Positions 826 to 59,245 of a stretch of 64,000 nt of DNA are shown here, one piece after another. Source of the stretch: Escherichia phage ECCR664; sequence record OL631257.1. One strand, 5' to 3'. Position 1 is the stretch's first letter; each line of letters opens with the position of its first letter. Made by a program: the position numbers and the translations under genes. The notes under the pieces are model-generated. The model did not search any database. It was not told the DNA's origin and was given only the letters and a program-made list of their open reading frames with translations.

Positions 826-860
826 ATTCATTATACTCTAACCATCCTTGGTTGTAAACT
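826..860 (-). promoter_or_regulatory. early (sigma70-type) promoter motif: GTTTACA -35, 18-bp spacer, TATAAT -10, with short inverted repeat
   Basis: minus-strand reading AGTTTACAACCAAGGATGGTTAGAGTATAATGAATC. Confidence 0.6.
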
Positions 861-863
861 GAT

Positions 864-1821
864 TTATGATTTTAATGCATTCATTGCGTTAAAAAGTTTA
901 GAGTACTGCAACTGGAGATTGGTAACTACTTGTTGAGCATCACGAAGCTTAGCTTGTGCTTTGTCAAGTTCAACAGACAGTTGGTCCATAGTGGCCTTGA
1001 TTTGATTGTAATGGTAATCTTCGGCCGGAAGAAGGTCATTAGAAACATTTAGTTTTACTGCAGACAGTTTGCACACATTTGGCAAACCTTTAAACATTGA
1101 TTTACCCGAAGTAGAATAAGCACTTAAGACTTCGGCCTGTTCAATTGGGGTCCCAGTAAGCGATGCTTCAAACAATGCATTTTCCTTTTAAGATTTTGAT
1201 AGTATTCAGAGTCTTTGTGCCACCATGGCGCAGGAACCTTTTACCAATAGATACACGAGCCTGGATAGCGATATGGCCCTTATTCTTAATAGGGTTGATA
1301 ATATTAAGCTCACGAGAATAAATCGCTTTAATCTGGTGGATATTATCACCTAAAACTTCCAACGCTTGGTGGAATACACGAGCAACGTTATCATTCTTAG
1401 GTTTATACGTAAGAGTGAACTCATTCTCACTGATAACCATGATTTCTAACTTATCGTAAGTATATTTCAAATGTTTCATGTTAATTGCTTGAGGACGAAT
1501 ACGAGAAGCAATGGCCATCAGATTGTTAAGGTTATTTCGGAACTGTTTAGCGAAATATTGTCCTTCACCGCCGATACAAAAATTACGAAGTTTCTGTTTG
1601 GCTAATAAACGGCTGAACTCACCATTTTTAATGAACTCTTTAACGGGTGTGTTAGTAACGCATTCAAATTGAGTAAACTTACGAGAAGTAATCCCATAAT
1701 ATGAACAGATTTCCTCAATCTCTTCAGGAGTCTTTACAGGCATACGGATAGGATTAGGTCCTGGAGTATATGCGTTCGAGGTAAATTCTTTGATAAGTTC
1801 TCTACGTGTAATAAAAGCCAT
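864..1821 (-). CDS. hypothetical early protein (~318 aa), two ORF fragments joined across an apparent frameshift near 1175
   Basis: ORFs 1168..1821 and 864..1175 abut in different frames; early-promoter motif upstream at 1838-1875. Confidence 0.45.
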
Positions 1822-1876
1822 TTTATATTCCTCATGTTGAAAAATTTATTATACTCCAACCATCCTTGGTTGTACA

Positions 1877-2872
1877 TCATTCCTTAAGAAGTTTTACTAC
1901 TTGAATAAGATTAGCTCGTTCTGTTTTATTTTTACCATTTAAGCCTGCTAATCGTGAGATTTCATCGTCAGTCTGTTGAATAGTTACATTAAGTTCGTTA
2001 ATCAAAGCTTCAAAGTATTTGATTTGCTCAGCATGTTTTGATTCAAATTTCTGAACCGGAATAACGTCTTGGTTTAGTTCGTCAATAAGGTCTTTAAGAG
2101 CATCTTCTTGGTTGATATCGTATTCAACTTCTTTTATTTCTTCAACTAGCTCGTCTTTATATCTAACGTCTTTTAGTCCTGGTGCTGGTCCTGAAATCTC
2201 TTCTTTAAGAGTACAAACATACCCAATACGGTATCCAGTGTCGTCTCGCTTGATATCAACTTCGTCGATAAATCCACAATGTTTGAGACCAGAGCCGATT
2301 AGGTCAAAATATCCTTGACGACGTCCTTCAAACGTTACACGAACTACTAAGACAGTTTTGCCTGCAATCTTTTGAAGCTCACATTTATAAAAGTCAGTTG
2401 AACCTGAATAACGTGGATGAGTTTTAAAGTTCATCTGTCGATCTAGGCCCATTTGTAAACGTGCTGTTACGGCCATAAAACGTGTTTGGTTCTCGTTAAG
2501 ATGAGCAACAATCCATTTCAAAGGCATTTTACACTGTTCACGACCGAACAAATCAGTACGTCCTAGATTACGCAGGATGTTGTTAGAGTTAATCATCGAC
2601 AGAACGTTAAGTTTATTCAGCGCGCTGAAGATTCCATCAGCCATTGATTTTCCGTAGCCTTTACACGCTTTAATAAGCGCTCGCGGTAGATTAGTATAGA
2701 TTTCAGACGGCATATGAAAATCAAATTTACTAACCAGTAATTGATGAACTTGGATAGCAATTCGTTCATAATTAAGCGCTCTGCGATCATTATGGTCTTT
2801 AAACCACACTTTAATCTGTGAAGCACATAAACCGTTAATTTCATGTTTTATCGCATCAGATGTAATGCTCAT
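1877..2872 (-). CDS. hypothetical protein, 331 aa
   Basis: intact 331-aa ORF, no recognised motif. Confidence 0.5.
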   Translation of the reverse strand: MSITSDAIKHEINGLCASQIKVWFKDHNDRRALNYERIAIQVHQLLVSKFDFHMPSEIYTNLPRALIKACKGYGKSMADGIFSALNKLNVLSMINSNNILRNLGRTDLFGREQCKMPLKWIVAHLNENQTRFMAVTARLQMGLDRQMNFKTHPRYSGSTDFYKCELQKIAGKTVLVVRVTFEGRRQGYFDLIGSGLKHCGFIDEVDIKRDDTGYRIGYVCTLKEEISGPAPGLKDVRYKDELVEEIKEVEYDINQEDALKDLIDELNQDVIPVQKFESKHAEQIKYFEALINELNVTIQQTDDEISRLAGLNGKNKTERANLIQVVKLLKE

Positions 2873-2934
2873 AACTATTTCCTCAGATTGAATTGGAACT
2901 CAAAACCATTATAACCCGTCCTTGGGTAAAGCGT

Positions 2935-3460
2935 TTATGCGTGAACCGTCTTTAAACGTTCTTCAAATTTCCGAAGAGTACTAATACGTTCTGCTTTCTG
3001 TTTTGTATAGTTTGCAATACGTTCTGAAGTGAGAGCGTATCGTTCGTTTACTGTTTCTTTCATGAAGTCAGGGATTTCACGAGAAGCTTTAATTTCATCA
3101 AACTTATCGAGTACTGCCTGGTCTTCAGCGATTAAATTTTCGTACATCTCGATATCTTTCTTAATGAAGTCGATATCTTCCTGTGTTACTTTGGATAAAC
3201 GAGATGCTTTATCCTTTTGTACTGCTCGTTAGTTTCACGAGACCAGAATAATGTACGTTTTTGTTAGTGTTTTTGTAGACTTCCACAATTCCAACTGAAT
3301 CGATGATAACAATCCAATTCCAGCGAGATTTGAAAATCTGACCTCCATCCACGGTAATCTCATTACCATAAGCAACGTCATTAAAGAACTTGCTTTGTGC
3401 TTCAGATTTAAATTTACCGTCGTTATAATTTACCAGGTTGAAAATATCTTTAGCGTTCAT
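2935..3460 (-). CDS. hypothetical protein, possibly one gene split by a frameshift (ORFs 3209..3460 and 2935..3147)
   Basis: two collinear ORF fragments. Confidence 0.35.
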
Positions 3461-3484
3461 GTTTTACCTCCAGTAGTTGATAGG

Positions 3485-3517
3485 TCTATAATAACATAAT
3501 CATAGACCTTGTAAACA
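3485..3517 (-). promoter_or_regulatory. early promoter motif embedded in inverted repeat (AGGTCTAT…ATAGACCT)
   Basis: minus-strand GTTTACAAGGTCTATGATTATGTTATTATAGACCTATC. Confidence 0.55.
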
Positions 3518-3940: not shown

Positions 3941-4940
3941 TTATTTCAGTAAAGTTACTTCGGAGATTTCCTCCCAACCATCTTTATCAGTTGAAATAAA
4001 ATCTGCTACATAAAGAGCCGTACGTAATGATACATTGCGAAGACGAGATACGTTAGCCTTCATCCAGGACAATGCTTTGTACGTTTCAGCATCAGTCAGA
4101 CCACGTTTCTGCATCATGTCAGTAGATAATATTACATCTTCAACTCGAACCATAATCTCTTCATTAGAGTGTACTCCAAGGTCGAGATACACTGAACGAG
4201 ATACTAAAGCTTGAAGGTGTGGAGCAAGTTTCGAACCACGTTCTAACTCTTTATCGATATCAACGTTTGTAATGAAAACGATAGTACCTTCAAACTCAAA
4301 TTCTTTATCAATACCCTTATCATCAAGATAAGATGACGCAGTGCTCCAACAAACTTTGCGTTTATCTCCGGTATCTAATGCTGCTTTAAGAAGGTTCAAG
4401 ATATCCATATCAGAGAATACATCAACATCGTCGATTAAGAGAACGCTGTCTGCATCACGGTTGAGCCAAAGTTGTTCGTAAAGGCCAATACCAGAGATTT
4501 TACCATTAATGCTTTTGTATTTGATGAAGCCATTATCATTAGCACTATTAAGTGCTTTATCCAGAGAATACGTCTTACCAATACCGGCTGCACCTGAAAT
4601 AATGAGTGAACGAATTTTGCCATCGATAATGCCATTCGTCATCATGTTCATTACTTTAAAGCGTTTGTTGATGCGAGTTTTCATATCTTCAGTGCTTTCA
4701 ACAACTGCAACTGGTGATGTCTCAACTCCTTCCATTACGATGTCTGATTTGAAGACCCATACTCCACGTTCAGAACCATCAATCATAACGAAAATTTTAC
4801 CATCACCTAAGTGGGAACATTCAGGATTAAGCTTTGCTGGGAACCAGGTCTTTGTGGCGACATAAGAACCAGAGATTTCGTTATTACGATAGATACCTTT
4901 TGATTTGAACGTTGAACATTTTATTCTCCAATTTACTCAT
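3941..4940 (-). CDS. P-loop ATPase (AAA-like), N-terminus apparently frameshifted
   Basis: Walker A GAAGIGKT, Walker B LLIDDVD, downstream FITN sensor-like motif in ORF 3941..4786; open frame continues upstream to ~4940. Confidence 0.55.
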
Positions 4941-5009
4941 TTCGTTTCGATAGGTCTATAATAACATATCCTAAAAGCATGTACACTACTTTTTAAAAAT
5001 ATTTTAACC

Positions 5010-5035
5010 CCTAAAGGGACCCGAAGGTCCCCACA
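5010..5035 (-). terminator. stem-loop (GGGACC-CGAA-GGTCCC) downstream of minus-strand gene 5037..5318
   Basis: perfect 6-bp stem with tetraloop; T-rich tract weak. Confidence 0.4.
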
Positions 5036-6806: not shown

Positions 6807-7343
6807 TAATTCCTTATTTCAAAGTCGGGATAATAGAATCGAGATAAGCTTTAAGAGCAACTGCTTCATCTTTGTCTAATGTAATGATATGTTGACGAAG
6901 GTCATCAATTTGGCGAATAACTACAACATCACCGTCTTCATAAGAAGGATTAACGCTCAGGACTGTTGTATAGTCAGGGTTGTCCTGATTTGTAATAAAA
7001 GCATTACGACATTTAGCCCATTGAAGTTTGGCCTTTTGGCTGTTTCAGATTCCATGAATTCTTTCACTTTAGCGACGAATGTTTTCCAATTATTAATAGA
7101 AAAACATTCGTCTTCTGTTTCGATATTAACCCCACTATAAAGTCCGTGATAAAAACGAACTTGAAGGTCTTCATCAATGTTAATTACAGATGCATGGCCT
7201 GGTGGATTGAGTTTCAAAATCTTGTCCAGTTCCATAGGAAGAATAGTAACAGCATCATCTTCTTGCGTCAGAACGTAAGCATAACCGCGTTTTTCAATAC
7301 ATAAATCACCGAACAACTCTGTTGTTTCAATTACAGTTTTCAT
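6807..7343 (-). CDS. hypothetical protein, apparent frameshift near 7030
   Basis: ORF 6957..7355 (real start MKTVIETT) with open frame continuing to ~6807. Confidence 0.4.
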
Positions 7344-7649
7344 ATTATTCACCAATTAAAGTTTCAACAAAATTCACCAAAGCATTCTGGCAAGCGTCAA
7401 CCTGATTTTCATAAAAGTCTACGTTATCATTTACCGCATGATAAGCTACATCATTCAAATCTGAATCGGCTTCACGTAAGTCATGGATAAGGTCCATCAA
7501 TTTATTAGCTTGTTCACGGGTCATTTTACCATACTCGTTTCAATAAGATTCACTATGCCGTTTACCATGTTATAAGTAAACATCGGATAATTGTATTGTA
7601 CTACAACATAAGCGATAAGCAAAAGTTTCATTTTGTTCTCCGTTCGTTT

Positions 7650-7690
7650 TGATAGGACTACTATAACATAGTCCTATCAAGTTGTAAACT
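7650..7690 (-). promoter_or_regulatory. early promoter motif embedded in 10-bp perfect inverted repeat GATAGGACTA/TAGTCCTATC
   Basis: minus-strand GTTTACAACTTGATAGGACTATGTTATAGTAGTCCTATC. Confidence 0.55.
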
Positions 7691-7925
7691 ACCGATTGTG
7701 TTTTAAATGTTGATAAAGTTCTTCAACTTGTTTAGGGTCCAAAACAATTAAGTCATTTTCTTGACGAAGATAAATCCATCCCTTATCCCCAGGGCCATTT
7801 TTACAAAACATCACCGTCGTCATATCGTCATCTTCAGCGCTTTCAGGTAAAAGTTCAAGTACACCGTCTTCAGATTTTCCAGTATAATCGTAAAGCATAA
7901 TATCCTCACATAATCTCGTTAACAT
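7689..7925 (-). CDS. hypothetical protein 78 aa
   Basis: ORF; early-promoter motif 7650-7690 just downstream. Confidence 0.4.
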   Translation of the reverse strand: MLTRLCEDIMLYDYTGKSEDGVLELLPESAEDDDMTTVMFCKNGPGDKGWIYLRQENDLIVLDPKQVEELYQHLKHNR

Positions 7926-8152
7926 ACATTTGCAATTCGGTGTGCGTATCAGCCATCTTTTTCATAGCTCTGTTAATGTCGATGTCTCCATCTTCGCAAC
8001 CATGAGCATTTTCCCAATCAGATACCGCATTAGCGTACTCTTCAATCAAAAACATTAACTTAGAAATTTTTTCTTTACGTGTCATAATGTTCTCCTCTAG
8101 TAAGTAAAGACTACTATAACACAACCTGAGGAAAAGTAAACTGCTAAATGCC

Positions 8153-8181
8153 AAAAGCCCCAACCTTTCGGAAGGGGCTAT
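8153..8181 (-). terminator. rho-independent terminator after rI
   Basis: hairpin AGCCCC…GGGGCT with A-run on plus strand (T-run on minus); same ~27-bp sequence as at 24114-24142. Confidence 0.65.
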
Positions 8182-8185
8182 TAAA

Positions 8186-8487
8186 TTAGATAGATGTAGG
8201 CTCTAATTTTATTTTCATGAACTCAGCAAATTGTCTGGCGGTTTTTATGCCTTGTTCATGACATTCAAATGCATCATCACAGGGACTATTTTTGTAATGC
8301 TTTGCCATATACTTATAGAATTTTTCAGAATTCTCGACATTTTGAATTTCAAACAAAGTATATACGTTTTTAATCCCTGATTCCATAAAGTTATCAAAAT
8401 ATGGGTCGATATGTGCAGTACCAACGATAGGAGTTGTTGCTGCAAAAACCCCAGCATCGCTATGACAGCTATCGCTCTTAAGGCCAT
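8186..8487 (-). CDS. rI: lysis inhibition regulator rI (frameshifted, two fragments)
   Basis: N-terminus MALRAIAVIAMLG and C-terminus …FMESGIKNVYTLFE…CHEQGIKTARQFAEFMKIKLE resemble T4 RI; fragments 8245..8487 and 8186..8386 in different frames. Confidence 0.75.
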
Positions 8488-8499
8488 ATAGGCCTCCTG

Positions 8500-8712
8500 T
8501 TAATTTTGGCCAGTATTTATTTTTCGCCTTTGGACGGCCTTAACATCTGTGAGGTATTTTTCCAGCTTGCGCTTGCGTGTATAATCAGCTTTAGAACCAG
8601 TTTGACGGATATCCTCATTTAAATGAGAAATAGAATGTCCTAATTCTCTTCGGATTTCATCCAATTGGGTTACAGTAAGATTACGAAGTTGTCTTTCGTT
8701 TAATTGCTGCAT
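8500..8712 (-). CDS. hypothetical protein 70 aa
   Basis: ORF. Confidence 0.4.
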
Positions 8713-8739
8713 ATATACCTCTTGGTTAGATATTAGTAT

Positions 8740-9319
8740 TTATAACAACCCTGTCAAATCATTCCAATGCTTCCGGCATAATGACACGTATCTATCAGTA
8801 TCACCAATTTCAATTTGACTGCCATCTGTAATTGGAAGTCCGTCTTCCGTGACTCTAGCTACCATTGTGGCCTTTTACCACAATGACAGACACCTTTAAG
8901 TTCAACAAGCTTATCGGCAATAGCCATTAATGCTTGAGAACCTTCAAATAGATTACCTTTAAAATCTGTTCGTAGTCCATATGCCATTACTGGCACATTG
9001 TATACGTCAACAATACGACTAAGTTGATACACCTTTTCAGTAGTTAAGAACTGAGCTTCGTCAACAAATACACAATGAATATCCTTTGTGCTGCAGCCCA
9101 TTTATAGAATTCAAAGATGTCCATGTCTTTTGTAATTATATTGGCATCCTGACGAATACCAATACGAGAGACTATTTCACCTTTTGAATCACGAGTATCA
9201 ATAGCCGGTTTAAGAACTAATACACCCATGCCACGTTCTTTATAGTTATGTGCGGCAGTAAGTAATGAAGCAGACTTACCAGCATTCATAGCGGCATATG
9301 TAAAAATTAAACTAGCCAT
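8740..9319 (-). CDS. tk: thymidine kinase (frameshifted in two places)
   Basis: [21 protein letters not shown]-loop; …VFVDEAQFL…CHCGK… as in T4 Tk; three collinear fragments. Confidence 0.9.
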
Positions 9320-9328
9320 AAGAGTCCC

Positions 9329-9511
9329 TTATAGTGAATTCACGTAGTCAATGAGTTCTTGTTCTTTCCTGTCAAATGATTCCATCAATGCGTGATATTC
9401 TTCGTCCGTCAAAGGAGCATATTCATCGTACGCATTGGTGGCTGCTTGTTCATCCAATAGGTCATGGATAAGTTCGAACAGTTTAGCTTTCTCTTCTTTA
9501 GTCAATTTCAT
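9329..9511 (-). CDS. hypothetical acidic protein 60 aa
   Basis: ORF. Confidence 0.35.
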   Translation of the reverse strand: MKLTKEEKAKLFELIHDLLDEQAATNAYDEYAPLTDEEYHALMESFDRKEQELIDYVNSL

Positions 9512-9720
9512 TTAGGTTCACCTTCTTTAACGAAATCTGGGTAAGGGTAAAATCCTGAGTAAAACCCTTCACCTTTATGATTACTACAACCTTTGTTCGA
9601 ACAGTAACACCAATAATCAAAATCACAAGCCATTTCGTCATTGCATAAAGCAAAAACTACAGGCCATTCGCATTTTTCGCATTTAGCGCCTGTAAGAATT
9701 TTTGTTTGGCTCATAACCAT
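9508..9720 (-). CDS. small Cys-rich protein (possible Zn-binding)
   Basis: CEKCEW…C…C…CYCSNKGCSNH cysteine pattern. Confidence 0.4.
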   Translation of the reverse strand: MVMSQTKILTGAKCEKCEWPVVFALCNDEMACDFDYWCYCSNKGCSNHKGEGFYSGFYPYPDFVKEGEPK

Positions 9721-9923
9721 GTCACCTTTAAGCAGTATTCTTCTACATGCTGTTTACGACCTTTCTTATCAATAAAGGTATATTCAACGAATGTTCCAAT
9801 GTAGTCTTTATCTACATCATGTGGACTATTAATTGGACATTTAGTACGACAAATGCGTTCCCATTGACGAATAATTACTGCCTTATTCTTTGGGTCGTAT
9901 GGATGTGGATAATGTATATTCAT
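9711..9923 (-). CDS. hypothetical protein ~70 aa
   Basis: ORF 9711..9938, likely start MNIHYPHPY. Confidence 0.35.
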   Translation of the reverse strand: MNIHYPHPYDPKNKAVIIRQWERICRTKCPINSPHDVDKDYIGTFVEYTFIDKKGRKQHVEEYCLKVTWL

Positions 9924-10417
9924 AATAATGGTTCCCAATCAACAATCACAATTTCTAGTTTAGTGGAATACGTATCTAAAATCTCTTCGATGATATCCCA
10001 GTTTCCGCCACCGATACCAGCACCAATTCTTGGCATATAAATTAAAGGCTTTGTTATCTTATTCTTTCCGAATTTATTTAATTCTATTATACAATTCATT
10101 AAAGCAGAGTACTCAAAATTAGGTCCAGGCTCAAACTGTGTATAAAGATTAAAGCAATAAGCTTTATGGGTCTTAAAATATTTTTCATAAACCGAATAAG
10201 TCCCGAGTTTAGATTCGTCTCCGAATTCGGTTTGAAGTTTATCGGCTTCCAGAATTTTTGGATAAGCCTTTGCTAATTGACCTGCTACACCAGCGCCCAT
10301 TGTATGAAAACAATTGCACCCATGAGCAATATTATTACCTTTAGAAAACAGGGCGACAATATCGCCCTTGATATAGTTTTTAATCACTTGCTGCAAGTCC
10401 TCTAGTATAAGAGTCAA
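9920..10417 (-). CDS. macrodomain protein, TARG1/OARD1/DarG-like (putative ADP-ribose hydrolase)
   Basis: YIKGDIVALFSKGNNIAHGCNCFHTMGAGVAGQ and MPRIGAGIGGGNWDIIEEIL resemble TARG1 motifs (…KGDLF…LAHCISEDCRMGAGIA… and MPRIGCGLDRLQW…), recalled from memory. Confidence 0.65.
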   Translation of the reverse strand: MTLILEDLQQVIKNYIKGDIVALFSKGNNIAHGCNCFHTMGAGVAGQLAKAYPKILEADKLQTEFGDESKLGTYSVYEKYFKTHKAYCFNLYTQFEPGPNFEYSALMNCIIELNKFGKNKITKPLIYMPRIGAGIGGGNWDIIEEILDTYSTKLEIVIVDWEPLL

Positions 10418-10727
10418 CTAGACGGTCCACCATAGAATTGCATGCTGCCTTATCTTTAGGTTCCGCCACCGAGCATTCTAATATTTGCCATTTTTTATAG
10501 TATCTTTTAATTAAGGTAGACGCCTTGAACCTACTAGACGCCCCATCTTTTTCTCCGTCTTTATACGCATATAACAATTTTTGTGAAAAATCTACTTTAC
10601 ACTCTTGACTTTTACCACAATAATCAGACGCCGTTCTGTTTGTATACTCCGTTACATCAGTATATGTAGTATTAGCAAGAGCGTTAAATGAAACCAAGCC
10701 AACTATTAAAGCTAACATTTTGGTCAT
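10380..10727 (-). CDS. secreted protein with signal peptide, 4 Cys
   Basis: MTKMLALIVGLVSFNALA leader. Confidence 0.45.
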   Translation of the reverse strand: MTKMLALIVGLVSFNALANTTYTDVTEYTNRTASDYCGKSQECKVDFSQKLLYAYKDGEKDGASSRFKASTLIKRYYKKWQILECSVAEPKDKAACNSMVDRLVDSYTRGLAASD

Positions 10728-11266
10728 TCTTTTATTTCCAGTAGTTTATTTGATTTAAGGTAATTAGCCTTTTCTAGGACTTCAGAAGCATATTTACTTC
10801 CAGCACTTGTCTTCCATCCCGCATTATATGAGGATATAGCTTTTCTTATATCCCCGTTATGTATATTTAACCAATAAGAAAATTCGATATAAGCCCATCT
10901 GGCTGAATTAGACCGCTTAGATAGCATTTTCTTAATTTGGGCATCAGTCATATTATAACCAAGCTGGTTAATTCTTGCCCTCATTGTTGGTAGATAGTTT
11001 TGGAACATTCCATACGCATGGTGACCTTTCTTATCTTTAAGATTAATACCTGCGGATGATTCTTGCCATAGTATTGCGGCCATTATGTATCCAAGTCCTT
11101 TCTTATGCATATTTTCATGCGTTTTAAATTTTCCGTCCTTAGAAAACTGTTCCCCAAACTGATAAGCATAATTCAAGTTATCGAGTTGGACATTACTAAA
11201 AGTATGCTCGGAGCTATGTGCTGATAACGAAAGAGCAAATAGACCAGCGAGTAGTGCTTTTCTCAT
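10724..11266 (-). CDS. secreted SLT-family lytic transglycosylase-like protein
   Basis: signal peptide MRKALLAGLFALSLSA; SLT motifs WQESSAG (catalytic E-S), GMFQ, YNAGW. Confidence 0.6.
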   Translation of the reverse strand: MRKALLAGLFALSLSAHSSEHTFSNVQLDNLNYAYQFGEQFSKDGKFKTHENMHKKGLGYIMAAILWQESSAGINLKDKKGHHAYGMFQNYLPTMRARINQLGYNMTDAQIKKMLSKRSNSARWAYIEFSYWLNIHNGDIRKAISSYNAGWKTSAGSKYASEVLEKANYLKSNKLLEIKE

Positions 11267-11274
11267 GTTTACCT

Positions 11275-11731
11275 CTAGATTTTAATCACTGCTTTAGAAG
11301 CTTTTCCTGGTAGTCGTTTACTGTTAATAATAGCCATTCTGCATTGAAGAGTCTTCATTTTGAATGCTGGATTTTCGCGACAGACTGTAAGTCCTAACCA
11401 AAGATTTCCGTCAGTTATTTCTAAACGGCCTGGGCGATATTCGACACCTTCGACAAAATCTTCATCAACATCTGGACGTGCCGGCATTGATAAAAATTCT
11501 GCAACTTCTTTAACATGATTTTTACTTTATGAAATAATTCAAAACGTAATTCTCATCTATTTCTCTCTGGATGGCACGATCTAAGAGATGTTGAGAATAC
11601 TTGATATGAAAGCCTGGTAGTCCAAGAGACTTTGCAGCATCTTTTATACCGGCATTTATTTTGCGGAACTCCGTTTCAAAGATTCGACGGAGTTTATTAC
11701 GGCGGATAAAAACGTCAGAATTGATAGTCAT
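11275..11731 (-). CDS. regB: endoribonuclease RegB (frameshifted)
   Basis: MTINSDVFIRRNKLRR…HLLDRAIQREIDE and …GVEYRPGRLEITDGNLWLG…CRMAIINS…LPGKASKAVIK match T4 RegB in two fragments. Confidence 0.85.
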
Positions 11732-11740
11732 TTTTGATTT

Positions 11741-11790
11741 CTCCTCTAGTTGACAGGTCTATAGTAACACATCTAGAGGAGAAGTAAACT
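11741..11790 (-). promoter_or_regulatory. early promoter motif with flanking inverted repeat CTCCTCTAG/CTAGAGGAG
   Basis: GTTTAC at 11784-11789 (minus); IR arms at ~11741-11749 and ~11771-11779. Confidence 0.5.
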
Positions 11791-11793
11791 ACT

Positions 11794-12009
11794 TTATTGA
11801 TAAAATGGAGTTAAAGCCCAAGATTCTTTAGATACCATATTGGCGAAATGCCTCATCTCTTCGATTTGGCGACGACGCTGGTCAGCATAGTCTTCTTCAC
11901 CTTCTTCCTTACAATCTTCAAGGTCTTCTTCAAGATACTTTAAGTATTCACTACAAATTTTGTTGACCTTTTCTTGAAAGTCCAATAACCCGGTAATAGT
12001 AGAAGCCAT
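11794..12009 (-). CDS. hypothetical acidic protein 71 aa
   Basis: ORF. Confidence 0.35.
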   Translation of the reverse strand: MASTITGLLDFQEKVNKICSEYLKYLEEDLEDCKEEGEEDYADQRRRQIEEMRHFANMVSKESWALTPFYQ

Positions 12010-13700: not shown

Positions 13701-13971
13701 TTGTTCTCTCTAAGTTTGGGCCATTCCATGGCACATGAATTGTCCATTTCTGTATTTACCCATTACCGCACTTGGGCTCGACCTTATTACAGGTTGGCGG
13801 GAATCCCTCATAGAATCATGAGGTCCAGCTTGTTCCCATGTTATTTGAATGTAAATATTTTTGCCTTAATACTTATACCAGTGTGGCTTCATTAAAATTT
13901 TTTCATCGAGTCATTTTACCTCTCCAAGTAATTATGATTATACTATCACAATTCTAGGAGAAAGTAAACTG

Positions 13972-14274
13972 TTATTTACCTTTAATTACTTTAGCTGCTT
14001 CGATAGCCGCTTGCTGAAGGTCATCCATAGACATACCGAATTTAGAAGCAAAGTTATCAATTTTCTTTTCAACAGCATTCAAAGGCTTGGCCTGTTTACC
14101 TTCATTAGCGCCAGGAAGAGCGAGAATACGCTCTTTGTCAATATAAAGGCTTACAAGTTTCTTACGGTCTTTATCGGACAAATCGTGAAATGAATGGGCC
14201 TTTTTATTTATAGCGGCTTCTAATTTACCTGCACTCACTCGCGCTTCAGTAATAAATTCTTGATATGTTTTCAT
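13972..14274 (-). CDS. ipII: internal protein (IPII-like) with capsid-targeting N-terminus
   Basis: N-terminal MKTYQEFITEARV, 100 aa. Confidence 0.7.
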   Translation of the reverse strand: MKTYQEFITEARVSAGKLEAAINKKAHSFHDLSDKDRKKLVSLYIDKERILALPGANEGKQAKPLNAVEKKIDNFASKFGMSMDDLQQAAIEAAKVIKGK

Positions 14275-14365
14275 TTTTGTTTCCTTGTTTGTTTTGATAG
14301 AGTAATTATACCATATTAATACTTAAGCGTAAACTGTTTAAGCTTTACCATCGCAACCTTTTTCC

Positions 14366-14778
14366 TTAGTAAATTGATTTACCATAGTATTTGTACCAAG
14401 TAGGACGTTGAGCAATTTTTTCATCTAAACGAGCTTGACTTATCGCAATGGACGCTTCGGTCGGGACATAATTATTACGAAATTCGGCAGGGATGTCGGA
14501 AATATCTTGGACAGTCGTGTCCTTGATTTTGAAACCACGTTTCAAGCATTCAGCGATTAGCTCGATTTGACGTAAACGTAAAAATTCGAGTTTGTCGTAA
14601 AGAATGTTACATGACCTGTGCCTAAGATAAATGTCGGGGAGATTTTAAAATCCTTTACACGTTTACCGTTTTGAACATGTTTACGGACTGCACCAAATAT
14701 GCGTGGTAATTCACGATACTCAGCCATAAGATGTTGGTCGGTCAGTTCAGAAACAAGTGTTAAATTGATACGAGTCAT
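14366..14778 (-). CDS. denV: endonuclease V (pyrimidine dimer glycosylase), one frameshift
   Basis: [34 protein letters not shown]…[16 protein letters not shown] matches T4 DenV; C-terminus …[10 protein letters not shown] recovered in shifted frame. Confidence 0.9.
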
Positions 14779-14783
14779 AATTT

Positions 14784-14836
14784 CCTCCAAGTAGTTGATG
14801 AATGTATAGTATCAAAACCCTTGGAGGAAGTAAACA
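14784..14836 (-). promoter_or_regulatory. early promoter motif with inverted repeat CCTCCAAG/CTTGGAGG, upstream of denV
   Basis: GTTTAC at 14830-14835 (minus). Confidence 0.5.
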
Positions 14837-15118
14837 CTATTTTTCTGAAGCGCCTGAAATATATTTTTCAAGACGTTGTTTCATCAGCGAGCCGTTCTTA
14901 GCGATTTCTTCCGGTTTATCACACATACGCAACAAGGCTTCAAGCTTAACGATATCACTGGTGCGCTCAAATTTGCGAGTATCTATCTTACTAGCAAGTT
15001 CAGAAATACGTGCTAATAGACTTTCAGCTTCAACCAAAGCTGCACCTAGCTTAGTTGCAAATGTGTCAGTAGCTTCGTTAAGAATAGATTCTGATAAAAA
15101 TTCACTATATGTTTTCAT
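14837..15118 (-). CDS. internal protein (IPIII-position) with capsid-targeting N-terminus
   Basis: [16 protein letters not shown]… N-terminus; immediately downstream of e. Confidence 0.6.
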
Positions 15119-16809: not shown

Positions 16810-17494
16810 TACCAGCCTTCCATAGGGAATTCCAGATAAACTTGGGCATTGACACGAATTTCATTGGTAATCTTTTTAACTCGGTCTGTATTACGAGATA
16901 CACGTCCGAACCAACGCCATCCATTACTAATTGCACGAGAACCAGTGTGCCATGTTTGCCAATCGAACTGAAGAAGAGTACGGTCTGGAGCTTCCCATTT
17001 CTCTAGTTCACCTTTTTCAATTTTTCGAGGACTTCTTTGTGCCATTGGCGATAGATAAGTTCGCCATCAGGAATCTGGCTGAACTCTGCAGTTCCTGTTG
17101 CAAAATGAGTAGGACACACATCAGCGTTAACAAGGCCAAGAATATGTTCAGACAAATAGCGAGGATTGTCATAGTCGGGTTGTCCTGCAGTAATAAAGTG
17201 TTGACCAACCGGAATATCCGGGCGTGGTACATCGTCATGGTGATAACCTGGGATAGCAGGGTACCAACCAGGCATCAGCATGTGGACTCGTGAATCAAAT
17301 ACAACCTGGTCGGTGTTCCAATCATCTGGCAAGTTCATAATGAAGCTGCGAGTAATAGGACCGCCGTTATTATAAGCAAATTCTAAACTACAGTTGAAGA
17401 ACATAGGCTCGTTCTTGATTTTATCATTAGAAATACCGCCGGCAAAACCACCTACTGCACGAGCTTGACTATTAAACACTTTAGAACTATTCAT
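16809..17494 (-). CDS. hypothetical protein (~228 aa), frameshift near 17030
   Basis: ORFs 17003..17494 and 16809..17045 overlap in different frames. Confidence 0.4.
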
Positions 17495-17857
17495 ATTATT
17501 TTCCTCGACATTCTTTAATGAAATTTTCTAGATTGGTAGATTCAATAGCTTTTTACGAGCTTCTGAGTGTTCTTCTTCTGACAATTTACGTTTATAATTG
17601 ACCCAGACATTATGGTCGAAACCAGTCGTGGCATATAATAACAATGCTCCAACGAATAGCAAAAACGGCGATAAGAATACAAAACCAGGAACACCATCCA
17701 TATCGTAAGCCTTTTGTAATACTGCAACAGAAAGAGTTACGTAAAAGGTGATGCAAGTATTGTTAAAAGACCAATTCGGTTGGTTTCTGTTAATTTCATA
17801 ATATTCTCCTCATGTTTTAATAGGACTACTATAATATAGCCCTATCAGTTTGTACAC

Positions 17858-18058
17858 TTATTTTGACATTTCTTCGATGTCACGACGATACCCATCACGA
17901 ACTTCACGAAGAGCTTCAAGGCCACACATAGGCTCGATACCAGTAATGTGAACTTGATTAATCTGATACTCTACATCTTCTAACTGAGCGAAAACATAAC
18001 GACGTTCTGCTGCACAACCAGGTTTAGCTTTACCGAAACGTTTATTCAAAGTAGTCAT
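17858..18058 (-). CDS. hypothetical protein ~66 aa
   Basis: ORF 17858..18076, likely start MTTLNK. Confidence 0.35.
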   Translation of the reverse strand: MTTLNKRFGKAKPGCAAERRYVFAQLEDVEYQINQVHITGIEPMCGLEALREVRDGYRRDIEEMSK

Positions 18059-18138
18059 TTTTATATCTCCATTCACTCATTTGTTTTGATAGGTCTATAG
18101 TATCAACAACTACAGACCTTGTAAACAGTTTTGTGAAA

Positions 18139-19094: not shown

Positions 19095-19375
19095 AATATT
19101 TTCCTCGGATTAATTAACTTAAATTTCGCGACATGCGATATTATATTCATCCCAGAGGTCGTCATGTGAAGCCTCTACCAATGGAACGATTGTACCGTTT
19201 ATGTCTTCATTATAAGGACAAATTGTACAGTGCGCATCTTCGAATCGGATGCCTTTGTGTTCAGATTTTTATAACGCATATCGAATATCTTTGCAAACTT
19301 TTCACGAGTAATGGTTTTAGCAACCACTTTAGTTCCGATACTTTCGTAATAAATCATTGTGGACTCCATTTAATT

Positions 19376-19416
19376 TGATAGGACTACTATAACATAGCCC
19401 TATCTTGTTGTAAACT
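19376..19416 (-). promoter_or_regulatory. early promoter motif with GATAGGACTA-type inverted repeat
   Basis: GTTTAC at 19410-19415 (minus). Confidence 0.5.
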
Positions 19417-19907: not shown

Positions 19908-20213
19908 TTAGCACAACGCAGAAGACGAAACCCAAGCACCTTCAGTAATAACGTAACCATTACCTTCACGCTTAACATCGCCACCATTATTTTCAATTTC
20001 ATTTTTCATCCATTGGGATACGATTTCACCCTTAGGATAATAAGTACGACCGCTACCATAATCACCTACAGAAAATGATACGGCATATTGGTCTGCGATC
20101 TTTGTTGCTTCTTCTTCGATACGTTCAGCTTGATTCAGAAGTTTATAAATTGCATCTGAAGCGGATTTGGCATCATTAAACTCTGGTACTTTAATTTCAA
20201 TAATCTTACTCAT
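19908..20213 (-). CDS. small protein, paralog family member (C-terminal …GAWVSSSALC)
   Basis: ORF 101 aa. Confidence 0.45.
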   Translation of the reverse strand: MSKIIEIKVPEFNDAKSASDAIYKLLNQAERIEEEATKIADQYAVSFSVGDYGSGRTYYPKGEIVSQWMKNEIENNGGDVKREGNGYVITEGAWVSSSALC

Positions 20214-20569
20214 TTTCTACATTCCTTAATAAAGTTTTCTATTGTTTCATTTTCACGTCTAGCTAGGAGTTCATTATAACTAATCATTTGAGAAGCGTAA
20301 ACCTTTTTATTTTTCTTGTTATGGTTTATAAAATCGTAGTAAAAATAGACTACAGTACAAAAGGATGCGATGGATGCAAAGGCTTGGGTGTACCGTAAGT
20401 CCTGCCATTGGTCTGTGAATCCACCGGTGTTCCCTATAAATCCTAACACAACCCCGTCAATAAGAAATCCAACTAATCCAAAGGCAAATCCCATGCCAAT
20501 ACTCATAATAAAAATTAGAATGTTCTCACCAAGAGACGGCCATACGGTTAAGAGTTGAGGCTTTTGCAT
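20210..20569 (-). CDS. membrane protein
   Basis: hydrophobic helices ILIFIMSIGMGFAFGLVGFLIDGVVLGFIG. Confidence 0.45.
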   Translation of the reverse strand: MQKPQLLTVWPSLGENILIFIMSIGMGFAFGLVGFLIDGVVLGFIGNTGGFTDQWQDLRYTQAFASIASFCTVVYFYYDFINHNKKNKKVYASQMISYNELLARRENETIENFIKECRK

Positions 20570-21562: not shown

Positions 21563-22156
21563 TTATTTCAAAGAGTTAATATATTCTTGTACATCGGCAG
21601 AAGTGGTTTCGACACCGGCTGGAGTACCATTGAACGTTTCAACACGAGTCAGAGTGTCTTCGATATCAACCTTAGTCAGTGCAGCAATTTCAATCACATC
21701 ATCAGCCGTAGAGATACCAAGGGCATTGGCTGCTCGAGTTTCACGAATGTATTCGAGTTTGATTGCCAGATTCTGACGAGCATCATCAAGTTCAACCACC
21801 TTACGAGCAATTTCAATTCGCATAGCGGCATACCCGTCAGCTTTTGTATTAAGTTGTTCGGCAGTTCGACGATACAAAAGACCAAGCTTAGCATGCATGG
21901 TAACATCTTGTCCTTCAGCCAGGAGCTTACGAATTTCACGTTCCTTAGAAGCGGCTTGCTTATTCTTTTCAATAACAAGTTCGCGAATACGTTTTTCTTC
22001 ATTAATAGATTTAACAGAAGCCGTTTTTAGTTCTTTGATTTGGGTAATCAACTTATCTGCAGCTGCGTTATACTGTTCTTCGACAGTCAGATTTTTAGCC
22101 ATAGCAGTACCCAGTTTAGTGCGGATGAATTCAACAAGTTTCTTCAGTGTGTTCAT
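21563..22156 (-). CDS. coiled-coil protein (weak PspA/IM30-like resemblance, not established)
   Basis: ~197 aa, heptad-rich K/E/A/R composition. Confidence 0.4.
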
Positions 22157-22504
22157 ATTATTACCTTTCAATTGGTGGTTTATTATCCAACGAGAGTATT
22201 ATACTCTGCTCTAAAGAGTTTGTACACTTATTTGTACGAATTAATAATCTCTTCCATTTTATCCAGAACATGGATATCGATTATACGAGGAAGTGCCGAA
22301 AGATTAGAACCGTCGAAAGATTTAAGGTCTTCCAAAATAATATTTTCAATGGCCTTTAAAGCTTCCGCAGATTCTGACGCAGAATTAAATTCAGGAATTT
22401 CTCCAAAAGACGTAAGAATGAACCAAAGTATTCTGCGGCGATTTCTTTAGCTTGTTCGATATCAGACTTAAACATTTTGTTTTCCTCATTTGTTGGTGGA
22501 GTAA

Positions 22505-22759
22505 TCATATCACCATCCTTGGCGTTTGTACATTATTTTTAATCAAGTTGACATAAAATTCTGCATCTTCAGGGTGCATGCCTTCACAGTATTCTTCAAC
22601 CATGAACTTCTTAACAGCTTCATAAGGACCACTCAGATTAAGCTCAGTTGTCCAGAACTTGGAATCTTGGACCGAATCGATACGAACGTCAGGGTGACGG
22701 TTGCGAATAACTTCTTCGGTGTATTCATAATCAACGACATCAATACTAACTGTAGCCAT
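22505..22759 (-). CDS. hypothetical protein 84 aa
   Basis: ORF. Confidence 0.4.
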   Translation of the reverse strand: MATVSIDVVDYEYTEEVIRNRHPDVRIDSVQDSKFWTTELNLSGPYEAVKKFMVEEYCEGMHPEDAEFYVNLIKNNVQTPRMVI

Positions 22760-23424
22760 TTTGTTTTCCTCTTGATTTGATGTGATTACTATAACATAAA
22801 CTTACTTAGATGTAAATTATTTCAACGTCACCTTTAGCGGCTTTATAACCTTCAGCCCAAGATACAACAGAGTTTTTATCTGAGGATTCAAATTCAGGCA
22901 TTGGACTTTCACCAATATTCACACAGTATGTTTCTTCATTTTCATCGAACCAAATAATTAAAGTAGTCATTTTGTTTACTCCTTTGTAGTTGATAAGTCT
23001 ATAGTATCACCATCCTTGGTGCTTGTACATCATTATTTTAATTTTTCCAACTTAACAACTTGTAGTATCCTTCATTCGTACGTGGTTTATCCCAAAAATA
23101 CTAATATATGATTCGCTGTCAATAGAAGTCGCCGGGTTTTTCTCTACCGTAAGACCTTCACTTTCCAGCCATTCAATAGTATTTGCGCATAAATCAGAAG
23201 AACACCTCATCGGGAACCGGCAAGATTTTTCACCTTTAGCTGCAGTGTTATACATCTTTTCTAAAATACGCTTTTGCACGTTTTTAAAAATAGTTTCAGC
23301 AGATTCTTCAGATTTTTATTCAGTTCAGTGTAAAGACTCATACTATTCTCCTCATGTTTTAATAGGACTATAGTAACACATCCAGGGAAGAAGTAAACAA
23401 CTTTTTCAGTAAGTTATAGACCCC

Positions 23425-23447
23425 TAAAGGGGCCCGAAGGTCCCCAT
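23425..23447 (-). terminator. stem-loop downstream of the IP-like gene; related in sequence to the 5010-5035 hairpin
   Basis: CCCCTAAAGGGGCCCGAAGGTCCCCA, imperfect stem. Confidence 0.35.
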
Positions 23448-23450
23448 TCT

Positions 23451-24806: not shown

Positions 24807-24883
<77 letters not shown>

Positions 24884-24889
24884 AATATA

Positions 24890-26419: not shown

Positions 26420-26468
26420 TTGATTTGATAGGACTACTATAACATAGTCCTATCAGCATGTAAACTAC

Positions 26469-26756: not shown

Positions 26757-26780
26757 TTTATTTCCTTGAGGCTGTTTATT

Positions 26781-57293: not shown

Positions 57294-58862
57294 ATGACTA
57301 CTATCAAAACTAAAGCTCAGCTCGTAGACAAATGGAAAGAACTGCTGGAAGGTGAAGGCCTGCCGGAAATCGCTAATAGCAAGCAGGCTATTATCGCTAA
57401 AATCTTCGAAAACCAGGAAAAAGATTTCGAAGTATCCCCTGAATATAAAGACGAGAAAATCGCTCAGGCATTTGGTTCTTTCTTGACCGAAGCTGAAATT
57501 GGTGGTGACCACGGTTATAATGCTCAGAACATCGCAGCAGGTCAAACCTCTGGTGCAGTAACCCAAATTGGGCCGGCAGTTATGGGTATGGTTCGTCGTG
57601 CTATTCCTAATCTGATCGCTTTTGATATTTGTGGTGTTCAGCCTATGAACAGCCCGACCGGTCAGGTATTTGCTCTCCGTGCAGTATATGGTAAAGACCC
57701 TATCGCTGCTGGCGCTAAAGAAGCTTTCCATCCGATGTATGCCCCAGACGCGATGTTCTCTGGTCAGGGTGCTGCTAAGAAATTCCCAGCTCTGGCTGCT
57801 GACACTACTACTGTTGTAGGTGATATCTATACTCACTTCTTCCAAGAAACTGGTACTGTATATCTGCAAGCTTCTGCTGTCGTAACACTTGATTCTAGTG
57901 CAACTGATGCAGCTAAATTAGATGCAGAAGTTAAGAAACAAATGGAAGCCGGTGCACTGGTAGAAATCGCTGAAGGTATGGCTACTTCTATCGCTGAACT
58001 CCAGGAAGGTTTCAACGGTTCTACCGATAACCCATGGAATGAAATGGGCTTCCGTATCGATAAACAAGTTATCGAAGCTAAATCTCGCCAGCTGAAAGCT
58101 GCTTACTCTATCGAATTAGCACAAGACCTCCGTGCAGTACACGGTATGGATGCTGATGCTGAACTGAGCGGTATTCTGGCTACAGAAATTATGCTAGAAA
58201 TCAACCGTGAAGTTGTTGATTGGATTAACTACTCAGCACAGGTTGGTAAATCTGGTATGACCCTGACTCCAGGTTCTAAAGCTGGTGTATTTGACTTCCA
58301 GGACCCGATTGATATCCGTGGTGCTCGTTGGGCCGGTGAAAGCTTTAAATCTCTGTTGTTCCAGATTGATAAAGAAGCAGTTGAAATTGCTCGTCAAACC
58401 GGACGTGGTGAAGGTAACTTCATTATCGCTTCCCGTAACGTAGTTAACGTACTGGCTTCAGTTGATACTGGTATTTCTTACGCTGCACAGGGTCTGGCTT
58501 CTGGTTTTAATACCGACACTACTAAGTCTGTATTTGCCGGTGTACTTGGTGGTAAATACCGCGTATATATCGACCAGTATGCTAAACAGGATTACTTCAC
58601 CGTTGGTTACAAAGGCGCTAACGAAATGGATGCAGGTATTTACTATGCTCCTTACGTTGCACTTACCCCACTGCGTGGTTCCGATCCTAAGAACTTCCAG
58701 CCGGTAATGGGCTTTAAAACTCGTTACGGTATCGGTGTTAACCCGTTTGCTGAAAGTTCCCTGCAGGCTCCAGGTGCTCGCATCCAGTCCGGTATGCCGT
58801 CTATCCTGAACAGCCTTGGTAAGAACGCTTACTTCCGCCGTGTATATGTAAAAGGCATCTAA
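57294..58862 (+). CDS. 23: major capsid protein gp23
   Basis: intact 522-aa ORF closely matching T4 gp23 throughout. Confidence 0.98.
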   Translation: MTTIKTKAQLVDKWKELLEGEGLPEIANSKQAIIAKIFENQEKDFEVSPEYKDEKIAQAFGSFLTEAEIGGDHGYNAQNIAAGQTSGAVTQIGPAVMGMVRRAIPNLIAFDICGVQPMNSPTGQVFALRAVYGKDPIAAGAKEAFHPMYAPDAMFSGQGAAKKFPALAADTTTVVGDIYTHFFQETGTVYLQASAVVTLDSSATDAAKLDAEVKKQMEAGALVEIAEGMATSIAELQEGFNGSTDNPWNEMGFRIDKQVIEAKSRQLKAAYSIELAQDLRAVHGMDADAELSGILATEIMLEINREVVDWINYSAQVGKSGMTLTPGSKAGVFDFQDPIDIRGARWAGESFKSLLFQIDKEAVEIARQTGRGEGNFIIASRNVVNVLASVDTGISYAAQGLASGFNTDTTKSVFAGVLGGKYRVYIDQYAKQDYFTVGYKGANEMDAGIYYAPYVALTPLRGSDPKNFQPVMGFKTRYGIGVNPFAESSLQAPGARIQSGMPSILNSLGKNAYFRRVYVKGI

Positions 58863-58887
58863 TCTTAATTGATTAAATCTTATTTTG

Positions 58888-58915
58888 GGAGACTTCGGTC
58901 TCCCATTTTTGGTTT
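58888..58915 (+). terminator. rho-independent terminator after gp23
   Basis: GGGAGAC-TTCG-GTCTCCC followed by ATTTTTGGTTTT. Confidence 0.8.
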
Positions 58916-59184
58916 TATTTCTGTGCAATTTCGATGTAAGTTTTCAAAATATTTTGCCAATTAGGCATACCTTCTTGGACATATGCTGGAGAACCGTCTT
59001 TGTTTTTGAATGATGCAAGTTTATCAGTGGCCCAATAACCTTTAGCTCGAGCTTCAGAATCAACTTTCATCCATACTTTGTTGAAGGCATTACCATTAAC
59101 TTTTGCACCATATTTTTCTACTAACTTAACTGCTTCAGCTTCTAGAACTTTTAAAGTATCTCGTAAGAAACGTGCTTTAGTCAT
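58915..59184 (-). CDS. hypothetical protein (89 aa) in the gp23-gp24 intergenic position, with its own early-promoter motif
   Basis: ORF MTKARFLRDTLKVLEAEAVKLVEKYGAK…; promoter motif at 59200-59245; no GIY-YIG or HNH motif. Confidence 0.5.
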   Translation of the reverse strand: MTKARFLRDTLKVLEAEAVKLVEKYGAKVNGNAFNKVWMKVDSEARAKGYWATDKLASFKNKDGSPAYVQEGMPNWQNILKTYIEIAQK

Positions 59185-59199
59185 TTTGTTTACTCCTCT

Positions 59200-59245
59200 G
59201 TAGTTGATAAGTCTATAGTATCACATACCAAATACGTTGTAAACA
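59200..59245 (-). promoter_or_regulatory. early promoter motif upstream of the ORF between gp23 and gp24
   Basis: GTTTAC at 59239-59244 (minus); GATAAGTCTATAGTATCAC element as in other copies. Confidence 0.5.

Follow-up and report, generated by a model that had tools for sequence, protein, structure and literature searches.

Escherichia phage ECCR664 (sequence record OL631257.1) was analysed over a stretch of 64,000 nucleotides (nt), hereafter the window, in which about twenty putative early-promoter cassettes, many of them containing an inverted repeat, lie between positions 826 and 59,245. The window is 96–99% identical to Mosigvirus (RB69-like) coliphages, and its closest relative is phage mogra. 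Positions 7000–12000 and 1–25000 showed 96–97.5% identity to phages such as APCEc01, JK42/45, JS09 and HX01, and the segment between gp23 and gp24 matched phage mogra at 99.3%. Comparison with the annotated JS09 genome gave the minus-strand gene order nrdC.x - mobD - rI - tk - vs - regB - ip - denV - e - tRNA - ipI - 57B for positions 1–27000. In T4-type genomes the early stretch from nrdC to 57B is classically the hyperplastic region, and 20 of the 21 cassettes are found in positions 1–27000. We consider it probable that they are T-even-type promoter early stem-loop (PeSL) cassettes, in which a hairpin formed in read-through RNA would insulate the expression module while the promoter core would provide homology for recombination.

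Both strands were scanned with a strict promoter pattern, T[TG]TAC, N16–18, TA[TC][ATG][AG]T, and the expectation was obtained from 200 Markov-2 simulations. There were 23 matches on the minus strand and 3 on the plus strand, compared with about 2.2 expected per strand. A preliminary description of this DNA had listed 21 copies of an early promoter, and all 21 sites exist: 20 are canonical, corresponding to 20 of the 23 minus-strand matches, and the copy near 13905 is decayed. Hairpins were assessed by folding the segment from the −35 element to the ATG with RNAfold and comparing it with 200 dinucleotide shuffles (n = 21 cassettes; significance at z ≤ −2.5). The cassettes, named by the position of the T of their −35 element, and the neighbouring terminators are given below with their transcription start sites (TSS), Shine-Dalgarno sequences (SD) and open reading frames (ORFs) where relevant.

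799–859, minus strand: cassette 858; −35 at 853–859, −10 at 830–835, predicted TSS at about 823, ATG at 801; only a 5-bp spacer stem, AACCAaggaTGGTT; its recombination partner is the 1876 copy.
1819–1877, minus strand: cassette 1876; ATGTACA, TATAAT, ATG at 1821; spacer and −10 near-identical to those of the 858 copy.
3458–3516, minus strand: cassette 3515; spacer/start-site hairpin AGGTCTATGAT (3499–3509) / ATTATAGACCT (3482–3492), z −2.6, −12.9 kcal/mol.
4917–4986, minus strand: cassette 4985; no significant internal hairpin; canonical terminator upstream.
5008–5035, minus strand: intrinsic terminator, GGGGACCTTCGGGTCCC then TTTAGGGG, upstream of promoter 4985.
7629–7689, minus strand: cassette 7688; hairpin TTGATAGGACTAT (7668–7680) / GTAGTCCTATCAA (7649–7661), z −5.8, −17.7 kcal/mol, with most of the −10 in the loop.
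8083–8141, minus strand: cassette 8140; weak, non-significant anti-SD/SD complementarity, TTTTCCTC (8128–8135) / GAGGAGAA (8090–8097).
8153–8181, minus strand: intrinsic terminator, AGCCCC..GGGGCT then TTTT, upstream of promoter 8140.
11729–11789, minus strand: cassette 11788, the regB promoter; anti-SD TTCTCCTCTAG (11773–11783) directly after the −35, pairing with the SD segment CTAGAGGAGAA (11739–11749), z −3.2.
13912–13969, minus strand: decayed cassette; GTTTACT, 20-nt spacing to TATAAT, SD, and ATG ACT CGA TGA, a 3-codon remnant.
14272–14334, minus strand: cassette 14333, at the internal-protein locus; no significant hairpin; JS09 and AV110 indels abut both sides.
14776–14835, minus strand: cassette 14834; anti-SD TTCCTCCAAG (14820–14829) / SD CTTGGAGGAA (14782–14791), z −4.7.
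17797–17857, minus strand: cassette 17856; hairpin TGATAGGGCTAT (17836–17847) / GTAGTCCTATTA (17818–17829) with G·U pairs, z −3.8.
18056–18126, minus strand: cassette 18125; hairpin AGGTCTGTAGT (18109–18119) / ACTATAGACCT (18091–18101) with one G·U, z −4.7; with 17856 it flanks a 66–72 amino acid (aa) ORF missing from HX01 and AV110.
19355–19415, minus strand: cassette 19414; hairpin GATAGGGCTAT (19394–19404) / GTAGTCCTATC (19377–19387), z −5.7.
20211–20302, minus strand: candidate 20301, an extra promoter-like match not listed earlier, within the 3′ end of the upstream ORF; uncertain.
22154–22227, minus strand: cassette 22226; 6-bp stem AGAGTA/TACTCT across the −10 (GAGAGCA/TGCTCTC in the JS09 ortholog).
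22473–22533, minus strand: cassette 22532; ATGTACA and spacer motif CCAAGGATGG; with 22226 it flanks a 50-aa ORF missing from JS09, HX01 and AV110.
22757–22817, minus strand: cassette 22816; no hairpin (z +1.0).
22968–23030, minus strand: cassette 23029; ATGTACA; 5-bp spacer hairpin CACCAaggaTGGTG.
23339–23398, minus strand: cassette 23397; no internal hairpin; canonical terminator upstream; an AV110 replacement begins 7 nt 5′ of its −35.
23422–23449, minus strand: intrinsic terminator, GGGGACCTTCGGGCCCC then TTTAGGGG, upstream of promoter 23397.
26396–26465, minus strand: cassette 26464; hairpin TGATAGGACTAT (26444–26455) / GTAGTCCTATCA (26426–26437), z −5.0.
26754–26820, minus strand: cassette 26819, the ipI promoter; hairpin AGGATGATGGTG (26800–26811) / TACTATCATCCT (26785–26796), z −3.5; in T4 the stem of this promoter differs, TGATGAGGTA/TACCTCATCA.
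59182–59244, minus strand: cassette 59243, isolated in the late region; only TTGTTTAC/GTAAACAA complementarity, z −1.5 (marginal).

The canonical layout comprises an A-rich upstream tract, GT(T/G)TAC(A/T), a 16–17 bp spacer, often TGn, and a −10 of TATAGT, TACTAT or TATAAT. The 24 nt 5′ of the −35 are 73% AT and 42% A, compared with 62% and 31% overall. In each of the 20 canonical copies an SD and ATG follow 21–32 nt past the predicted TSS, and upstream ORFs finish just before the −35. Many early genes of Acinetobacter phage AbTZA1 (MK278860, positions 1–50000) carry GAGTAAA, not GAGG, as the purine-rich element 8–9 nt before the ATG. The same string, ATGAGTAAAT, is found 5′ of the real SD in cassettes 4985, 18125 (as ATGAGTGAAT) and 26464.

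A scan with the generic sigma-70 consensus, TTGACA/TATAAT, revealed no enrichment (71 found compared with 68 expected, and 37 compared with 33), and the discriminating element is the T4-type −35 motif only. By their sequence these motifs are T4-type early promoters, and the cassettes are predicted to be active as such. T4 early promoters consist of UP, a −35 of GTTTAC, TGn and a −10 (PMC2988021), and 57 early promoters have been predicted in RB69 (Nolan et al. 2006, PMC1524935). The window promoters have in common with those of T4 and RB69 the consensus, the positions at orthologous genes and a C-rich region at −3 to −1; a text search of the RB69 paper turned up no sign of inverted repeats in its promoters. 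The Rfam search returned no family for the cassettes, two tRNAs being the only matches. Two plus-strand matches, at 3463 and 26411, were set aside as mirror images of palindromic cassettes and not separate promoters; the matches at 27970 and 62082 have no SD and ATG after them, and their number is about what chance would give.

A start-site motif, RGTYCTATCAA(A/C), spans −7 to +8 (e.g. 7646–7660) and is conserved in the early promoters of T4 and of T4-like phages of E. coli and Acinetobacter. The RGTYCTATCAA region is kept even in promoters without the repeat, and might have a role in promoter escape, the 5′ leader or RNA processing.

The orphan cassette at 13912–13969, whose −35 and SD are intact, looks like the remnant of a lost internal-protein-type gene; its intact neighbour at 14778 starts with ATG ACT CGT (MTR...). 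One copy was previously said to drive an ORF inserted between gp23 and gp24, which agrees with our analysis: cassette 59243 is predicted to drive an 89-aa minus-strand ORF (58915–59184; PHROG 6003, function unknown) lying between gp23 (57294–58862) and gp24 (59285 onward) on the opposite strand. The same site holds the homing endonuclease gene segD in T4 and nothing in many Tequatroviruses. Between the convergent gp23 and 89-aa ORF, a hairpin GGGAGACTTCGGTCTCCC at 58886–58905 looks like a shared bidirectional terminator.

The five inverted repeats quoted in the preliminary description are all present at their places, but its view that the promoters are generally embedded in such repeats holds for about half of them. 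Nine of the 21 cassettes reached z ≤ −2.5 (3515, 7688, 11788, 14834, 17856, 18125, 19414, 26464 and 26819), with hairpins of −13 to −18 kcal/mol; 59243 was marginal and the others were not significant. Perfect stems of at least 8 bp occurred in 6 of the 21, compared with 5% when spacers were swapped among promoters and 0.8% when the spacer was shuffled. Apart from these nine and the three cassettes with a canonical upstream terminator, eight to nine have only weak stems or none and are comparable to published 'degraded' PeSLs.

The repeats are real, but they do not share one bracketed layout as had been supposed; they fall into distinct classes. In class a, the 5′ arm is located within the spacer and is paired with a 3′ arm that starts at the last −10 base and reaches about +4 (−7 to +4), so that most of the −10 lies in the loop; examples are GATAGGACTA/TAGTCCTATC, AGGTCTAT/ATAGACCT and AGGATGATGGT/ACTATCATCCT. 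In class b, an anti-SD immediately after the −35 is paired with the SD, as in the regB promoter and cassette 14834. The other arrangements are a small hairpin of the spacer and a terminator that stands apart, upstream of the promoter. Both classes were found in T4, at the ipI, mobD.2, denV, regB and nrdC.8 promoters, and in AbTZA1, which belongs to another subfamily, class-a stems are present at about half of some 25 early promoters. Promoters 858, 1876, 22532 and 23029 have a common spacer motif, (A/C)CCAAGGATGG(T/G), with a small non-significant hairpin, and three of the four have the weaker −35 ATGTACA. The loop-closing pair of the CCAAGGATGG stem becomes A·C in relatives, and this small stem is therefore unlike the selected hairpins.

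Predicted early promoters of the window, JS09, HX01, AV110, T4, AbTZA1 and IMG/VR contigs were combined into a set of 189 distinct sequences. Stems of at least 9 Watson-Crick pairs were found in 23% of them, compared with 3.0% for swapped and 1.4% for shuffled spacers, so the arms are far more complementary than in shuffled controls; 68 distinct stem sequences were counted. Among the 151 promoters not chosen for pairing, the excess of complementarity peaks on a single anti-diagonal. The stem register varies (anti-diagonals 42–50), which leaves no single consensus structure for all copies, and for this reason the formal covariation count was confined to one register. It used 22 cassettes chosen for having the stem in that register, so that the percentage paired is biased while the comparison with shuffles is not. 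Double-sided changes were found in 10 of the 12 pairs. There were 43 compensatory cells, compared with 15.3 ± 3.0 in shuffles (0 of 500 reached 43) and 6–14 in slid registers, which bears out the compensatory variation between arms noted in the preliminary description. An IMG/VR scan with GTTTACA-N14-TGTTATAGT gave at least 120 loci, mostly chance matches in unrelated contigs and useful only as a set not conditioned on the arms; in this sample arms around a constant loop covary (TAGGGTCA/TGACCCTA, TAGGGCCA/TGGCCCT, TAGGGCTA/TAGCCCTA and TAGGACTA/TAGTCCTA). Class-b helices of at least 8 bp were present in 16 of 192 promoters, compared with 1.0% when halves were swapped, and the SD-flanking bases covary. 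The pairing is under selection.

A search with the 52-nt 7688 cassette found 1256 places in 341 phage records, with 5–9 places per genome in Mosigviruses. Single 7688-like places, with 85–92% identity over about 40 nt, were found in Tequatrovirus, Dhakavirus and phages of Acinetobacter, Serratia, Enterobacter and Aeromonas. Because the −35, the TGn-10 and the start region are fixed and the spacer is tied by pairing, nearly every cassette position is constrained; horizontal transfer is therefore unneeded for near-identical cassettes in distant phages.

Stems with one internal mismatch showed 18 G·T or T·G and only 1 A·C or C·A on the sense strand, compared with 162:87 and 115:77 in controls (about 1.5–1.9 to 1), and the ratio was still about 14 to 1 once related copies were collapsed. 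The 18:1 asymmetry indicates that the hairpin has been selected in a single-stranded molecule of the sense strand, most simply RNA. Under the rules known for T4, transcription starts at the A of CCTATC, 7 nt past the −10, and by this analogy the TSS of each cassette was predicted. Of the class-a 3′ arm, a transcript from the predicted TSS includes no more than three bases, and the class-b 5′ arm is missing from it altogether. Because a promoter's own transcript is without the needed arm, the hairpin would be confined to RNA reading through from upstream. Partition-function prediction gave, from own RNA to read-through RNA, a fall in the probability that the SD is unpaired from 0.49 to 0.00 in 11788 and from 0.24 to 0.00 in 14834.

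The module may be pictured as an A-rich UP-like tract, a strong sigma-70 early promoter, the conserved start region RGTYCTATCAA, an unstructured leader of 21–32 nt, and an SD with its ATG. The spacer, which is otherwise free to vary, would in about half of the cassettes have evolved complementarity, either to −7 to +4 (class a) or to the SD (class b). The module's own transcript would begin inside the 3′ arm in class a and downstream of the 5′ arm in class b, and would hence be hairpin-free, while in read-through RNA the hairpin would insulate the module. For class b, this would bury the SD in read-through RNA and allow translation only from the gene's own early transcript. For class a, the upstream cistron would end in a stem of −13 to −18 kcal/mol, which might substitute for the canonical terminator of other cassettes by attenuation, pausing or 3′-end protection.

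The window was aligned with JS09, HX01 and AV110 to survey indels. Three ORF-sized segments of the window are missing from relatives: 856–1824 (nrdC.5 homolog), 17845–18120 (the 66–72 aa ORF) and 22233–22524 (the 50-aa ORF). Each has a cassette on both sides in the window, and the single cassette left in the relatives is a chimera whose upstream flank derives from one copy and whose downstream part derives from the other; in AV110, for instance, one chimeric cassette stands in place of 856–1824. The change from one copy to the other occurs at the −35, in TACAAAC, or inside a 30-nt core that both copies share. Further replacements begin 7–45 nt 5′ of promoters 4985, 7688, 11788, 14333, 23029 and 23397. 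When cassettes were compared with these gene-content breakpoints, about 11 of the 15 indels or replacements abutted one and four events were not near one. The chimeric junctions, three in all (JS09, HX01, AV110), are direct evidence of cassette recombination. The conserved promoter core of 30–45 nt would act as a portable homology patch through which T4-type recombination deletes, inserts or swaps single ORFs. The ORFs flanked by cassettes, which are the cargo of this recombination, belong to PHROG families of unknown function.

The terminator-like hairpins reported at about 5010–5035, 8153–8181 and 23425–23447 proved to be real GC stems followed by T runs, situated just upstream of promoters 4985, 8140 and 23397, none of which has a significant internal hairpin. 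The terminators at 5008–5035 and 23422–23449 are repeats of one another over about 27 nt (GGGGACCTTCGGG[T/C]CCCTTTAGGGGT), each just upstream of an early promoter, and some cassettes appear to be accompanied by a mobile terminator module. A GC stem with a direct U-tract, as in intrinsic terminators, was found only in these three upstream hairpins and in none of the internal ones, and the consensus terminator scan of the window did not call the internal hairpins. An internal hairpin occurred with a canonical upstream terminator in 2 of 19 cases, compared with 64 of 184 without a terminator (Fisher p = 0.038). This suggests that the internal hairpin and the upstream terminator are alternative ways to handle incoming transcripts.

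That the class-a hairpins are themselves efficient transcription terminators, giving strict one-promoter, one-gene units as the PeSL papers state for phi1/RB49, would account for the two structures seldom occurring together, and the class-a stems are as stable as the canonical terminators of the window. One phi1 stem-loop cut lacZ expression as strongly as rrnB T1 (PMC2839356). However, the phi1 element assayed had a GC-rich G4/C4 stem, unlike the AT-richer stems here, and the class-a stems are followed by A-rich tails with 0–2 T in 8 nt and no U-tract, and are missed by the terminator scan. We therefore consider termination by the class-a hairpins unlikely. No usable T4 maps of TSS or 3′ ends were found in the literature for testing termination at the stems.

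The strand asymmetry and the covariation led us to reject a reading of the repeats as double-stranded DNA palindromes, either an operator for a dimeric repressor or a cruciform cut by endonuclease VII to start recombination, which we regard as very improbable. The dyad is centred on the −10 region, recombination junctions do fall at the cassettes, and coliphages and Acinetobacter phages alike have kept the TAGG...CCTA core. But 18 G·U against 1 A·C on the sense strand is not expected of a duplex or cruciform, the crossovers lie at the −35 and early spacer and not at the dyad centre, and the start-region motif, present also in promoters without the repeat, accounts for the conservation of the core. 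Arms, register and loop length (3–16 nt; up to 30 in class b) also vary, leaving no fixed protein site. Finally, a functionless hairpin, in which a self-complementary promoter variant spread by duplication and gene conversion with the pairing as a passenger, would suit the four window copies with near-same arms (GATAGGRCTA/TAGTCCTATC) and a promoter consensus that is partly palindromic by itself, but it is largely refuted by covariation (68 distinct stems with double-sided changes), by pairing with the own spacer far above that with swapped spacers, by orthologous promoters that keep a hairpin of other sequence (ipI, T4 and window) and by the like architecture in AbTZA1, and it has next to no credibility.

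Several points weigh against the PeSL reading with read-through insulation and core-based recombination. A significant hairpin is missing from about half of the cassettes and is therefore dispensable for both promoter function and recombination. The observed crossovers lie in the −35/spacer homology and not at the stem, and some enrichment of breakpoints at cassettes is to be expected anyway, since an indel has to end between genes for the phage to stay viable. Class-a hairpins leave the SD untouched and are without a U-tract (0–2 T in the 8 nt past the stem; 3 T in the class-b 14834); that any of the hairpins acts on RNA is something we infer. The TSS and the extent of read-through in ECCR664 are assumed from what is known of T4, the anticorrelation of terminators and hairpins reaches only p = 0.038, and the pooled promoters are predictions, among which some IMG/VR matches may be due to chance.

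Some features of the window lie outside the cassettes. Homopolymer length changes relative to JS09, HX01 and AV110 split several conserved genes: regB (11275–11731) has T5→T4 plus A6→A5 with about 22 nt between them, and nrdC.10 (4786–4919) has A6→A4 and a stop after 11 codons. The orthologs at 17492–17799, 23052–23341 and 864–1821 (nrdC.5) are shorter or split compared with relatives, which suggests the same cause. The split genes are likely assembly or sequencing homopolymer errors, real pseudogenes being possible. ARAGORN called a 94-nt 'tRNA-Stop (anticodon tta)' at 24183–24276 on the minus strand, near a tRNA-Arg/tRNA-Met pair (24807–24963). The Rfam tRNA model gives this call no support; either the call is a false positive or, possibly, the locus encodes a tRNA-like small RNA of the kind of T4 rnaC/rnaD.

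PeSLs have been defined in phi1/RB49 as intergenic elements with an AT-rich tract, early promoter, stem-loop, SD and start codon (Arbiol et al. 2010, PMC2839356), the stem-loop lying most commonly between −35 and −10 or overlapping the −10, and were later described also for the pairs PST/T4 and nt-1/KVP40 (Comeau et al. 2014, PMC4122927). As the preliminary description had proposed, the cassettes resemble PeSLs in all features open to computational analysis: an intergenic site, an AT-rich tract, an early promoter (T-even TTTACW-N17-TAYWAT), a hyperplastic location, chimeric indel junctions and, for the stem-loop, nine internal hairpins plus three canonical upstream terminators. Both the published PeSLs and those of the window lie in hyperplastic regions adjoining small ORFs of unknown function, and the PST/T4 stem consensus AGNA-loop-TCNT fits the AGGA...TCCT core here. 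The window stems differ from the phi1/RB49 G4/C4 stems in being AT-richer and without U-tracts, and the Mosigvirus (RB69-like) lineage is not among the published PeSL pairs. In the passages of PMC2839356 and PMC4122927 that were consulted we met no mention of sense-strand selection, absence of U-tracts or a covarying anti-SD class.

The highly variable internal-protein genes of T-even phages are flanked by elements with a T4-type early promoter and an AT-rich stem-loop of variable size (Repoila et al. 1994, as summarised in PMC2839356). Like cassettes were found at the internal-protein locus (13900–14900) and ipI (26754–26820), where relatives have indels, but in the window cassettes extend across the whole 27-kb early region, whereas the T-even elements, on that summary, flank internal-protein genes. 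In T4 e, soc, 49 and I-TevI, a helix with an internal promoter sequesters the ribosome-binding site (PMC3014915). Class b is modelled to work in the same way, with a promoter within the helix-encoding region, a long transcript that would bury the SD and an own transcript without the 5′ strand. However, the T4 genes use a late promoter (gp55, TATAAATA) and are late genes silent on early transcripts, whereas class b has an early GTTTAC/TACTAT promoter; class b thus works like the T4 ribosome-binding-site-sequestering system and is not a member of it. The cassettes belong to the published PeSL class, and the finding is real and largely known.

A further proposal, which we put forward tentatively and with some doubt, is that the hairpins are an ancient RNA device of Tevenvirinae and Twarogvirinae for discriminating transcripts by origin, and neither terminators nor recombination signals. 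The own early transcript would be hairpin-free and translatable, and upstream-derived RNA would be folded, with its SD masked (class b) or the cistron structurally capped or insulated (class a). If this were true, each small early ORF would be an autonomous, context-independent expression module and hence freely shuffled, and the tie between spacer and start region would explain, with no need for horizontal transfer, why coliphages and Acinetobacter phages have near-identical promoters of 40 nt.

What our analysis adds to the PeSL class is sense-strand pairing, which points to a role at the RNA level, stems that are not canonical terminators, and a separate SD-masking class. These refinements make the long-unclear role of the stem-loop testable. 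Mosigvirus is a widely isolated lineage and is used in phage therapy work. Gene shuffling by PeSLs is confirmed in this RB69-like lineage, with chimeric junctions at three single-gene indels as direct evidence, and the cassettes can guide annotation and engineering, since they show where insertions occur naturally and where self-contained expression units begin and end.

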